Of a stretch of 44,936 nt of DNA, positions 8,183 through 19,044 are shown piece by piece. This DNA comes from a virus. Lineage: Duplodnaviria; Caudoviricetes. Under the pieces are notes generated by a model, which did not search any database, was not told where the DNA came from, and saw only the letters and a program-made list of their open reading frames with translations. Both the position numbers and the translations under genes were made by a program. Where the stretch lies: positions 1-44,936 of the IMG/VR virus record IMGVR_UViG_3300037243_000031. One strand, 5' to 3'. How positions within the stretch are numbered: position 1 is the first letter of the stretch; every line of letters begins with the position of its first letter.

Positions 8183-10145
8183 GGAAATCGTCAGAATCGT
8201 CAACGCTATAGCAGTCAAGGCTTTGCTTGATTGCACCCATCTGCTCCAACCTCAGCAAAACCACAGCCATGTTTTTTTTCTGTTTTCCGGGGTACTTGTC
8301 AAGCAAAACTTCAAAAATCTTATCCTGGTGGACTTTTCCTGTGCTGGAATCGTGTGCAAGATCCTCCACGATCGCCAAAACTTCGCGGCTCAAATCGTAT
8401 CTTGAGTCGCTCAGGTTAGCCAATTTCGCGGGGCGCTTGCCGCTCTTTTCGACATCCTTCTTGATCGGTTCCACGACGCATGTCGTTACTTCGTCACCCT
8501 CGTCATCGTGACCGACAACGACGCGTTTCAGCACGAAGCTAAAACTGGCGCCCGTAGCGTCGTCTCGCGACTTGGAAAGCACAGCGCCGTGCTCCTTGTC
8601 GTTCTTGAACACTTCCATCACGAAATCAGCGCCCGCAAAGAGAGCTGACGAGCCCCGCATGCCTTTGCCGTCTTCCTTACCTGTGTGGTGGACGGCCAGG
8701 ACCATCGCGCCCGTCGTCTCGCTGAGTTCCTTGCAGGCAGCGAGGAACATGCCCATGTCCTTCGCGCTGTTCTCATCTCCTGAATGGCTAGCGGCCATTG
8801 TGTCTAGGATAACCAGGCCGGCTCGCCCGATCGCGGCTGCCAACTGCTGCGTGTCCGAGGAAAGCAGGTTTGGCGCACTCGCGATGATGTCGGGGCGCGC
8901 GCCTTCGGCACAGACGTACTGGTCGTAGGCGTCCATGCGCTTCTTGACGCCTTCGCGGGCCTCAGCCGCCACGTACACGACTCGGCAGTCTGAGACCTTG
9001 CGCCCGCGCCACTGGCCGCCACGCGCGATCGTCGCGGCAAGGTCTAGCACGAAGAACGTCTTGCCGGACCCCGACTGGCCGTAGAGAATGCCGACCTCGG
9101 CCTGCGGCAGCACGCCCTTAACGATCCACGGCGTGCTGAGGTAGTTCTGTTTGTAGTCGCCCCAAGCGTGAACTGCAAAAGGGTTATCTGAGGTCGCGCG
9201 CGGCTTGTGCTCGGCGGGCTTCTCGCCCTTCAGCAAACTGCGAAGCGTGACCTGCCGGCCTGTATAGCGCCCAAGCGAGTTCCACGTGAGATCAAACTTG
9301 GCGTCGGTGTGCTTGTGCGCTTCGGTTGACCAAGCGCGCGCCACGTCCTCGCCTTCTTCGCCGAGCTCGTGATGCACGGCCGCCAACACCTGGAACCAAT
9401 GGTCGTAATCGGCCTCGGCATTCGGATGGCGCGCAAGTAGTGCGCGTACTTCCTCTACGCCCTTGCCTACCGGCTCTACGTGCGCGGCAAACGGGTCATC
9501 TCCTGCCGGAGATCGATCATCTCTTGCTGCAACTTCGCCCTTCTTTGACCAACGCCCAGATGCAACCATTCTTCCCGCAAGTACTTCGAATGCGTCAACA
9601 ACCCGTTGAGCATCTGATCGGGTGAGCAGCGGTAGGGCGGATCGGTCAGATCCTCGCAAACCCACGCCGCTAACCCCATCGAACCACTCATAGGGCTTTC
9701 CCGTCTCGGGGTGCACGTGGTAAGCGACCCATTGCTGCCCGTCACCGAGGATTTCGACTTTGTGATCATTTTCGCCGTCCGTATAAACACTGGAAGTCAG
9801 TTTCTTGAAAGGATCGTCAGACCGGAAAGGAATCAGGAACTTAGGCGCCCGACCTGTGCGCGTCATTAGCGCCTGGCCTGCGAAGATCTCATCGATCAGA
9901 TCCGACATTTCCTGCGCCGCGACTTCGTCCAGAATATCCACGTCGATTGCAGGCGTGTAGCGGGCCAGCACGCCGATGCCAGCGTCCGCCGAACCGTTAG
10001 CAGCCATCTTATGAAAGGTCGGCTTGTCGAGCTTCAGGTTCGGCCAGCCTTTGATGCGCGGCCCCTTGCTGCCCGGCGGCAGAGGAACGATCAGGTACCC
10101 TTGGTCGAGCAACTGCTCGCCGAGGTTTTTGAAGTATTGGGTCAT
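8175..10145 (-). CDS. bifunctional primase-polymerase / PriCT-2 / AAA_25 (RepA-like) helicase
   Basis: Prim-Pol N-terminus (IVPLPPGSKGP, AIDVD), PriCT-2 (DYDHWFQVLAAVHHELG), Walker A GQSGSGKT, VILDT, VHHTGK...RGSSAL. Confidence 0.92.
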   Translation of the reverse strand: MTQYFKNLGEQLLDQGYLIVPLPPGSKGPRIKGWPNLKLDKPTFHKMAANGSADAGIGVLARYTPAIDVDILDEVAAQEMSDLIDEIFAGQALMTRTGRAPKFLIPFRSDDPFKKLTSSVYTDGENDHKVEILGDGQQWVAYHVHPETGKPYEWFDGVSGVGLRGSDRSALPLLTRSDAQRVVDAFEVLAGRMVASGRWSKKGEVAARDDRSPAGDDPFAAHVEPVGKGVEEVRALLARHPNAEADYDHWFQVLAAVHHELGEEGEDVARAWSTEAHKHTDAKFDLTWNSLGRYTGRQVTLRSLLKGEKPAEHKPRATSDNPFAVHAWGDYKQNYLSTPWIVKGVLPQAEVGILYGQSGSGKTFFVLDLAATIARGGQWRGRKVSDCRVVYVAAEAREGVKKRMDAYDQYVCAEGARPDIIASAPNLLSSDTQQLAAAIGRAGLVILDTMAASHSGDENSAKDMGMFLAACKELSETTGAMVLAVHHTGKEDGKGMRGSSALFAGADFVMEVFKNDKEHGAVLSKSRDDATGASFSFVLKRVVVGHDDEGDEVTTCVVEPIKKDVEKSGKRPAKLANLSDSRYDLSREVLAIVEDLAHDSSTGKVHQDKIFEVLLDKYPGKQKKNMAVVLLRLEQMGAIKQSLDCYSVDDSDDFLG

Positions 10146-11323
10146 ATCAGGTCGTAAGCCTCGATTGCTTCGGCAGCGGATCGGATGAAGATTTCCGCCT
10201 GAGAAGCGTTGATCGCGTTTCCGTAGGCGCGCAGTCGTCCCACTCTTGAGGTAGCGCCATGAGCCAGCGGGAATGTGCCGGGTTCAATTGGCCGCCACTT
10301 TCCGTCCCGGCAGAGGAGCCAGTCAGCATCTCGCCAGTAACCGTTAGTCGGGCAGGCTGATTCGATACGCTCAATTCGACCGTCTTGCGCGAACTGTCCG
10401 TGTTTCCCGCTGCGTTGTAGCCCTTCTGTGCCGGGGTGCCCGCCATCGGCGTAGGCCATCCAGCCAGCATCTCGCCAGAAACCGTTAATCGGGCCGGCTG
10501 CGACAGTTCCTCCGGGACGAGTAGTTGAGCCGCGTCGTCCAGGTTTCGTTTCCCCTGGCCATACCTCTTCAGCGCAGTCTGCGGTGTTGCCGTGCGGCCG
10601 TTCGGATCGCCGTCCCGAGCCTGAGGAGTCGGCCACGAGGCAAGCCAAGCCACTCGGCCCAGTAGTGCGTTGAGCGGGACGTTCTGACACTCGCTGCCAT
10701 CCTTGCGGTCGCGCGTCGTCGGTGTTGACCACGCCGCCAAGAACACCGTATCTTCGAGCCGGCTCTTGCGGTCGAATGCACGCTCCGGATTGCCCGTTGC
10801 GTGCCCGGCCTCGACCGATCGAGGCGTCGGCCACGAAGAAAGTTCGGTCCCGGATGTGCGGGGCACCGATGCCCGCAGACGGGAAAGCGATCGCCCCGAA
10901 GGCAAAACCCAAGCCTTCCAGGTCAGTCGAAACAAGGTCGAGCCAAGGCTCTGCGTCCTTGCTTGCAACCTGTTCACCAAAGACCACTGGAGGCTTTCGC
11001 TGAGAGATAAGCCAGTGCCAAGCGGGCCATAAGTGCCGCTCGTCAGCAAACCCCGCTCCTTTGCCTGCCGCGCTGAAAGGCTGGCAGGGGCAACTGCCGG
11101 TCCAGACGGGCCGGTCGTCGGGCCATCCGGCGTTGCGCAAAGCGTAGGACCAGACGCCGATTCCGGCGAAGAAGTGGCATTGGGTGAACTCCGAAAGATC
11201 GGAAGGGCAGACATCCTCGATACTCCTCTCGTCAACCACGCCGGGGGCAATGTGACCGGCTTTTATTAGATTTCGCAGCCACTCGGCGGCGTAGGGGTCG
11301 ATCTCGTTATAGTAGGCGGCCAC
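10142..11323 (-). CDS. C5 cytosine DNA methyltransferase, catalytic (alpha-like) chain
   Basis: FFAGIG (I), GSCPCQPFS (IV), GEQV (VI), PHIRDR (VIII), RAYGNAI (X); no motif IX. GTG start overlaps the AlpA-like stop. Confidence 0.92.
10147..11214 (-). CDS. nested alternative-frame methyltransferase beta-like chain with motif IX and four W(P/S)TP modules
   Basis: 355 open codons inside the MTase gene; AGGAG 8 nt before ATG 11214; [18 protein letters not shown] resembles motif IX. Confidence 0.78.
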
Positions 11324-18528: not shown

Positions 18529-19044
18529 ATGTGGAAGGCAATACCCGGATGGGAAGGATTTTACGAGGTGTCGGACAAAGGCGAAATCCGTTCGGTAGAC
18601 CGGACGATAACTTTCTCTGACGGTCGCGTTCGAAGCTATAAGAGTAAGATCCGCGCGCAATGCAAAGATCAAGCCGGCTATATGAAAGTGACTTTGAAGG
18701 GAGCGGGCGCGGAGTTCAGGGTTCACGTCCATGTTCTCGTTACCGCCGCTTTCATCGGCCCACGCCCCTATAAATGGGTGGTGTGCCACGGAGACGGCGA
18801 TAACACGAACAACAAACTTGAGAATCTTCGTTACGGAACGCCAAAAGATAACGCGGCCGATTCACTCAGACACGGCACGCGAGCGCGCGGTGAAACGTGC
18901 GGGGCTTCGAAGATTACGGAAGAAAAGGTAAGAGAGATTCGGGCGACGCGGGGCACCATGGATGAACTGGCTGATCATTTCGGCATGAGCCGAACAGCCA
19001 TCTGGAACATACAGAACCGAAAAAGATGGGGTTGGCTACCTTGA
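18529..19044 (+). CDS. NUMOD4-HNH homing endonuclease
   Basis: WKAIPGWEGFYEVSDKGEIRS; VCHGDGDNTNNKLENLRYGTPKDN; C-terminal HTH. Confidence 0.92.
   Translation: MWKAIPGWEGFYEVSDKGEIRSVDRTITFSDGRVRSYKSKIRAQCKDQAGYMKVTLKGAGAEFRVHVHVLVTAAFIGPRPYKWVVCHGDGDNTNNKLENLRYGTPKDNAADSLRHGTRARGETCGASKITEEKVREIRATRGTMDELADHFGMSRTAIWNIQNRKRWGWLP

Follow-up and report, generated by a model that had tools for sequence, protein, structure and literature searches.

The locus and its two open frames

The window, that is the whole stretch of DNA analysed here, is a complete virus record of 44.9 kb in which genes for terminase, DNA polymerase, helicase and primase are present. A methyltransferase gene lies on its minus strand, flanked by an AlpA-like gene and a primase-helicase gene (Table 1). 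PF00145 was matched once in the whole record, by this gene only, the product of which is called alpha below. Elsewhere in the window an HNH endonuclease gene (18529-19044, plus strand) immediately follows the DNA polymerase gene.

The alpha frame passes through motifs II, III and I, then motifs IV-VIII, an unconstrained read-through of ~150 aa over the units described below and finally motif X; motif IX is absent from this frame. Its catalytic residues, PCQ (motif IV), FFAG, EQ, RxR and GN, are invariant in 103 sequences, and motif VI takes the form EQV. Judged on its sequence, the PC of motif IV together with motifs I, VI, VIII and X identifies alpha as a C5-cytosine DNA methyltransferase (PF00145). 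The placing of motif I (FFAGIG) after motifs II (YNEID) and III (SIEDV), found in the window at 11323-11150 (minus strand), is a trait of alpha in this clade, unlike the methyltransferases of KBG, Pagassa and SPbeta, which keep the usual motif order.

A second frame, +1 relative to alpha, is open from 11250 to 10147 (minus strand), with zero stops in 367 codons, and would encode a nested chain, beta, for which a Pfam search gave no match. An earlier note on this DNA had claimed four W-x-T-P units in this inner frame, at 10833 (WPTP), 10731 (WSTP), 10635 (WPTP) and 10458 (WPTP), and the sequences that it quoted match those found here. The starts are spaced 102, 96 and 177 nt apart, and more than two W(P/S/A)TP words occurred in 0 of 20,000 shuffles of the inner frame, against the four of the locus. 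The position claimed for the units, between motifs VIII and IX, was likewise found, with alpha motif VIII upstream and the motif-IX segment downstream in the same inner frame. The proposed unit sizes of 32-59 aa stood for all units except the third, the '59 aa' of which comprise a ~40-aa unit and a duplicated terminal linker.

Table 1. Features of the methyltransferase locus, in window coordinates.
Feature	Positions	Strand	Description	Evidence
alpha ORF	10142..11323	-	393 aa, C5-cytosine methyltransferase catalytic chain	PF00145 E 3e-11; phrog_363 E 1e-86
beta ORF	10147..11214	-	355 aa from likely ATG 11214, nested in alpha, +1 frame; putatively translated	phrog_1008, phrog_31772
Shine-Dalgarno-like GAGGAG	11223..11228	-	8 nt upstream of beta ATG 11214	sequence
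beta residues 71-116	10867..11004	-	predicted helix and hairpin over alpha motifs V-VIII; in predicted alpha interface	block pLDDT 82-92
alpha motif VIII (HIRDR)	10844..10858	-		R158, R160 invariant in 103 sequences
unit 1	10732..10833	-	type M32, 34 aa	type in 4 loci, 4 different neighbour contexts
unit 2	10636..10731	-	type M06, 32 aa; docks on alpha in best complex run	type in 18 loci, 12 contexts
unit 3	10501..10635	-	type M35, ~40 aa and short tail	type in 3 loci
leftover copy of terminal linker	10460..10500	-	41-nt direct repeat	90% identical to 10319-10359
unit 4	10360..10458	-	type M03, ~33 aa, apparently recently acquired	type in 22 loci, 21 contexts
terminal linker	10319..10359	-	conserved in both frames	dN/dS over wider linker: inner 0.62, outer 0.54
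beta motif IX segment	10231..10290	-	14-letter motif from 10290	E 4e-10 to motif IX of single-chain relatives (profile match)
alpha motif X	10208..10237	-	10-letter motif	G368, N369 invariant

Selection on both frames among relatives

Relatives were collected on the strength of their catalytic domain only; the 80 best of 597 viral candidates, the 80 best of 214 genomic candidates and the window made up 161 loci. The two-frame layout (motif IX in the +1 frame and no stop after motif VIII) was present in 156 of them, three of which had no motif-X match before the alpha stop. The five loci without the layout comprise two at a contig edge, one with a foreign insertion, one that is frameshifted and the locus L044. 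Foreign sequence breaks the array of L005 after two units (2962 onward) and a frameshift lies inside the array of L102 (1370 onward). A further oddity is seen in L128 (2935-3970), where an insertion of ~200 codons near motif IX is followed by a second copy of the beta end; its +1 frame holds HHVNENWQDN and CVYCHQQWH, which we take to resemble an HNH nuclease.

Between motifs VIII and IX a stop interrupts the third frame in 155 of 156 loci and the alpha frame in 1. A T that would make an alpha stop, at inner position 3, was found once in 2831 cases, compared with 1562 in 9538 otherwise, and this near absence implies that alpha must read through to motif X. The beginning of beta is also marked, with an inner ATG on the Asp-Val codons of alpha motif III in 125 of 151 loci. 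For the Asp at this point, 131 of 151 loci use GAT, the codon that creates the ATG, compared with 547 uses among 1734 Asp codons elsewhere; a Shine-Dalgarno-like word stands ahead of the ATG in 88 of 125 loci (a count made without a control).

Selection, expressed as dN/dS, shifts from one frame to the other along the gene. Before the beta ATG, at the catalytic start, the ratio is 0.06 in the outer (alpha) frame and 2.62 in the inner (beta) frame, and the unit middles give the mirror image (inner 0.12, outer 2.78, from unit pairs chosen by inner protein identity; here and in the other regions the pairs are not independent). Motifs IV-VI gave 0.36 (outer) and 0.85 (inner), motif IX 0.79 (outer) and 0.21 (inner), and motif X 0.14 (outer) and 1.82 (inner). 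The same pattern was obtained from 905 unit pairs chosen by DNA identity alone, with differences of 0.15, 0.10 and 0.45 at inner positions 1-3. At the level of sequence comparison, these data show both frames to be open and under selection: in alpha this holds for the catalytic motifs, in beta for motif IX and for the units, which are under purifying selection in that frame. The family is broad; beta was matched by 6723 of 7995 candidates, and a profile of beta hit 232 GenBank phage records as well as 17,332 clusters (50% identity). A search of the ESM Atlas returned viral clusters alone.

Structure prediction was applied to the two chains, and alpha and beta are predicted to associate. The complex of alpha with beta residues 62-335 scored 0.91, the best of three controls scoring 0.00, on a scale whose mark 116 of 157 solved complexes attain, as do 2 of 215 mismatched pairs; at least 68% of contacts are common to the runs, with a partner pLDDT of at least 59. 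The closest predicted contacts are those of beta motif IX with alpha motifs VIII and X and the alpha N-terminus, and beta 71-115 also touches alpha. The high score may reflect likeness to solved single-chain methyltransferases, alpha and beta being split halves of such an enzyme. Unit 2 (158-170, 185-194) is the sole unit in the confident interface of the best run, which fits a single docking site occupied by one unit at a time; the docking of this particular unit may reflect the deeper alignment at unit 2.

The model of beta itself is poor (pLDDT 59.9, pTM 0.31), and the units are mostly unstructured in it. Because the units are of low confidence in both folds, that of beta and that of a single-chain relative, no structural match of units to a recognition domain was obtained. 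Foldseek with the poor beta model returned no match at E <=0.001, which is uninformative on the fold, and nothing relevant among solved structures came from sequence searches that used beta, the M06 alignment or the alignment of betas of 1-2 units as query. Over alpha motifs V-VIII, both frames are predicted to encode structure on the same DNA, the helix and hairpin of beta lying there.

Units drawn from a shared pool

Of 144 distinct loci, 143 could be parsed by pattern into 451 units, a few of which the regular expression mis-splits, and the remaining locus has a variant unit. The 143 loci carry 1-7 units each, with a median length of 36 aa, and long metagenomic betas carry up to 11. The 451 units represent ~119 types (101-147 depending on the threshold) and form 134 arrangements in the 143 loci. 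Types with at least three members were found at two or more positions in 45 of 47 cases, and 14 type pairs were seen in both orders. Moreover, among 36 locus pairs whose catalytic domains are at least 95% identical, the whole unit set is the same in only 4 and zero units are shared in 9. Within a locus, DNA identity amounts to 60% at the junctions and 29% in the unit middles, and the identity at the junctions offers a crossover site.

The pattern shows units to be drawn from a shared pool and, as read from their distribution, gained, lost and reordered at conserved xLAG/WPTP junctions. In-frame module exchange, as the earlier note had supposed, is borne out by homologs in which number, identity and order of the modules differ even with catalytic domains 99-100% identical. 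This comparison of module number and order had been named beforehand as a check, and it excluded an invariant content. Simple tandem duplication of units was considered and ruled out, given the 29% identity of middles within a locus and the finding that the nearest kin of each unit lies in other genomes.

No pair of the same type was observed within a locus among 565 pairs, where 8.6-15 were expected, and a duplicate unit type is present in 3 of 112 long betas. Deletion between near-identical repeats could be an alternative cause of this absence of duplicates. One predicted protein, P0051, joins a beta to a family A DNA polymerase (PF00476) and has one unit type repeated, possibly as an artefact of gene calling or assembly.

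The locus of the window is the only one of 143 with two true linkers, three other matches to the regular expression being false. Sequencing run X1, possibly the source, contains the array stretch whole with zero differences, and run X2, from another study, covers 10196-10696 in three overlapping pieces, also with zero differences, the piece 10351-10558 spanning the extra linker. Since both runs match without a difference, the stretch is not an assembly artefact. Joints found in a further run, X3, come from other organisms with low likeness and were disregarded.

At the DNA level unit 4 shares 97% identity with the final unit of another locus (L095), and the catalytic regions of the two loci are 81% identical. 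The match begins at the junction, directly after the leftover linker, with the breakpoint at the linker end. Read from this breakpoint, the comparison shows that unit 4 entered the array at a conserved junction. In the simplest reading, the linker end of a finished three-unit array would have crossed over with a donor junction, adding a fourth unit and leaving the extra linker as a scar.

Role of the units and comparison with known systems

A published account (PMC3404938) ascribes sequence recognition to the variable region that separates motif VIII from motif IX. As the alpha frame is unconstrained there, the units are the only selected variable candidates in this interval. Among actinophage relatives (L171-L201; 31 fetched, 29 parsed), 27 of 29 loci encode motifs IX and X in the alpha frame, which also holds 0-5 L-P-T-P units, placed between motifs VIII and IX. 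Of 120 actinophage-type single-chain proteins, 85 scored at least 10 bits with a hidden Markov model of the units, compared with 0 of 120 shuffles; in 113 of the 120 proteins the best match of the model falls on a unit. All 27 intact actinophage loci keep a +1-frame ORF with one or more units and without motif IX, and in four of them units occur in the +1 frame only; the sequences suggest that such recognition modules act in trans. Inspected by eye, the minimal members (KBG, Vibrio 1.091, SBP2phi2) retain nothing sizeable between motifs VIII and IX apart from the single beta unit. The invariant positions in unit middles are mostly R (25/30), Q (15/19), D (23/31), G (32/46) and N (16/26).

A one-unit single-chain relative models on M.HhaI (Z 23.1, 246 residues, 3.1 A), in a match that is reported as ranges only and does not map the unit to the HhaI recognition loop. 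Comparisons with characterized recognition domains gave little likeness. On SPbeta MtbP the unit model scored -4.6 bits, below the best shuffle (-0.9), and it gave nothing for the EZ-2018a enzyme. A position profile ranked the PTLTT site first in SPbeta and EZ-2018a, marginally, as 23 and 20 of 500 shuffles reached the score; on Dcm it failed (372 of 500), and it gave no support to a supposed resemblance between unit 2 and the recognition region of Dcm. Profile-profile comparison aligned the catalytic domain alone with MtbP, and motif IX alone between the two subfamilies. The earlier suggestion that each unit is a small recognition domain gains from the argument of position, with single-chain relatives carrying units in frame between motifs VIII and IX, and gains little from the supposed likeness to Bacillus domains, which is marginal. 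Palindromes are depleted in the genome (AGCT and CTAG 0.71, GGCC 0.78) and are tied to no unit; a search across family members for methylation, activity or expression data found none.

We consider it probable that the two overlapping frames encode two chains of one phage cytosine methyltransferase and that each of the four units is a small target-recognition domain, so that several sites would be methylated and the phage shielded against several restriction systems. Beta would be translated from its own ATG at 11214 and is predicted to supply motif IX and a helix-hairpin clamp to alpha. In known recognition domains a conserved Thr docks on the catalytic body; here, one unit at a time would dock its W-x-T-P edge on that body, and the Gly/Arg/Gln/Asn/Asp-rich middle would read the bases, each unit presumably reading a DNA site of its own. 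The purpose would be anti-restriction, as described for Bacillus phages. A wider proposal is made more tentatively, though it may well hold: that phage lineages in their thousands share a pool of more than 100 DNA-reading cassettes of ~36 residues, which fit one shared methyltransferase core and are supplied by a hidden frame or even, in actinophages, by a separate chain lacking motif IX.

It is unlikely that the units are recognition domains of which only one, be it the first, the last or the best-docking, is active, the rest forming a silent recombinable reserve. Unit 2 alone in the confident interface of the best complex run would agree with such an arrangement, as would the end preference of some types, with M06 leading the array in 16 of 18 loci and T07 closing it in 11 of 14. 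However, most common types (45 of 47) turn up at several positions, and decay would be expected of a silent reserve, so that the purifying selection on the pooled units (all positions together) counts against it.

Joint or loose action of the units, giving one composite or relaxed specificity, is improbable to the same degree. In its favour, the units are short, with a median of 36 aa, and largely unstructured by prediction, and other phage m5C enzymes of ~700 aa, whose kinship to the present family is not established, are described as having a relaxed CC specificity (PMC5537653). Against this, free reordering and arrays of 1 to 11 units accord better with units that act independently than with a reading surface folded jointly, and type-specific invariant Arg, Gln and Asn suggest specific reading.

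Slightly less likely again is that the units do not read DNA and are interaction tags, or decoys for host proteins, on the motif-IX chain. This would accord with the lack of a significant match of units to known recognition domains or solved structures, with the placing of the M.EcoHK31I target-recognition domain (TRD) on alpha in the literature and with the +1-frame units that actinophages keep without motif IX. However, the alpha frame over the units is unconstrained (dN/dS 2.8) and cannot hold the recognition domain here; furthermore, at least one unit is present in 143 of 143 parsed loci, a variant unit in the unparsed locus and a unit in some frame in 27 of 27 intact actinophage loci. A single polypeptide made by two programmed frameshifts, one into +1 behind motif VIII and one returning to alpha ahead of motif X, is very improbable. 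Two predicted proteins (P0040, P0270) do carry the alpha N-terminus, units and motif IX in a single frame, lacking motif X, but the selected internal ATG lies ~120 codons ahead of the units, a predicted folded beta segment overlaps alpha motifs V-VIII, alpha is kept open across the array where a double shift would not need it, and M.EcoHK31I is described as working as two chains (PMC2836561).

Should each unit of the proposed two-chain enzyme be one specificity, phages of many Proteobacteria would retune their anti-restriction methylation by swapping ~100 bp. The family would then be the largest natural library of swappable cytosine-methylation specificities, the arrays a readable record of the restriction systems that each phage meets, and one would have reason to reassign the recognition domain of M.EcoHK31I to beta, away from alpha. 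A table of units and sites would give a short recognition code for C5-methylation and allow host restriction systems to be inferred from phage genomes. With members in the laboratory phages N15 and epsilon15, the question is directly testable. Precedents exist for both ingredients, the nested two-chain layout and tandem recognition domains; the locus of the window adds the scar of a recent gain, the test on repeated types and the comparison with actinophages.

The nearest precedent for the layout is M.EcoHK31I of E. coli (YGGCCR), described as a C5-methyltransferase of two polypeptides that works as two chains (PMC2836561). Its beta lies wholly inside alpha in another frame, alpha carrying motifs I-VIII as well as X and beta motif IX, and the chains associate (PMC2836561, PMC3404938); both papers put the predicted TRD on alpha, not beta. 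The present family likewise has beta nested in alpha with motif IX on the nested chain (156 of 161 loci), and the selected ATG and the predicted complex (0.91 against 0.00) suggest that beta may have its own start and may associate with alpha as in M.EcoHK31I. Whereas M.EcoHK31I recognizes one site and has its predicted TRD on alpha, the alpha chain here is unconstrained between motifs VIII and X (dN/dS 2.8) and the variable array of units is on beta (0.12). The gene also differs in standing alone in a phage genome, with an AlpA-like gene on one side and a primase gene on the other, and the two systems are likened by layout, from descriptions and not from sequence, a plasmid search having returned no record named M.EcoHK31I.

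The use of the array recalls Bacillus phages, which employ tandem recognition domains against several restriction systems (PMC8936443, PMC12707154). Like M.SPRI, M.phi3TI, M.SPbetaI, M.rho11sI and M.H2I, the present enzyme is a solitary phage enzyme with tandem exchangeable modules between motifs VIII and IX. As in those multispecific enzymes, no module is repeated within one enzyme and module size is similar, with a median of 36 aa here and reportedly 38-54 aa in the Bacillus phage modules. In contrast, the Bacillus enzymes are single chains with a few known domains, whereas the array here lies on a second, nested-frame chain and draws on more than 100 types; likeness of the units to SPbeta MtbP in sequence is marginal or absent.

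The same two-frame layout with W-x-T-P units is found in annotated but uncharacterized members, namely in N15 gp58, in the epsilon15 cytosine methylase, in gp59/gp60 of the Paenibacillus phage Pagassa and in PHROGs 363, 1008 and 31772. Both frames are annotated as methyltransferases in the Pagassa record, the N15 and epsilon15 records annotate alpha only, and the units are noted in no record viewed. A literature search, for which subscription journals, REBASE and supplements were outside the scope and may hold an existing description, found no description of the nested-array family. The locus combines the two-frame layout of M.EcoHK31I with the multi-domain strategy of the Bacillus phages and is filed under neither system, because one published feature of each fails (the TRD on alpha and the single chain, respectively). 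The two-frame phage C5-methyltransferase, whose shuffled cassette array probably encodes several specificities, is a real, widespread and apparently undescribed variant.
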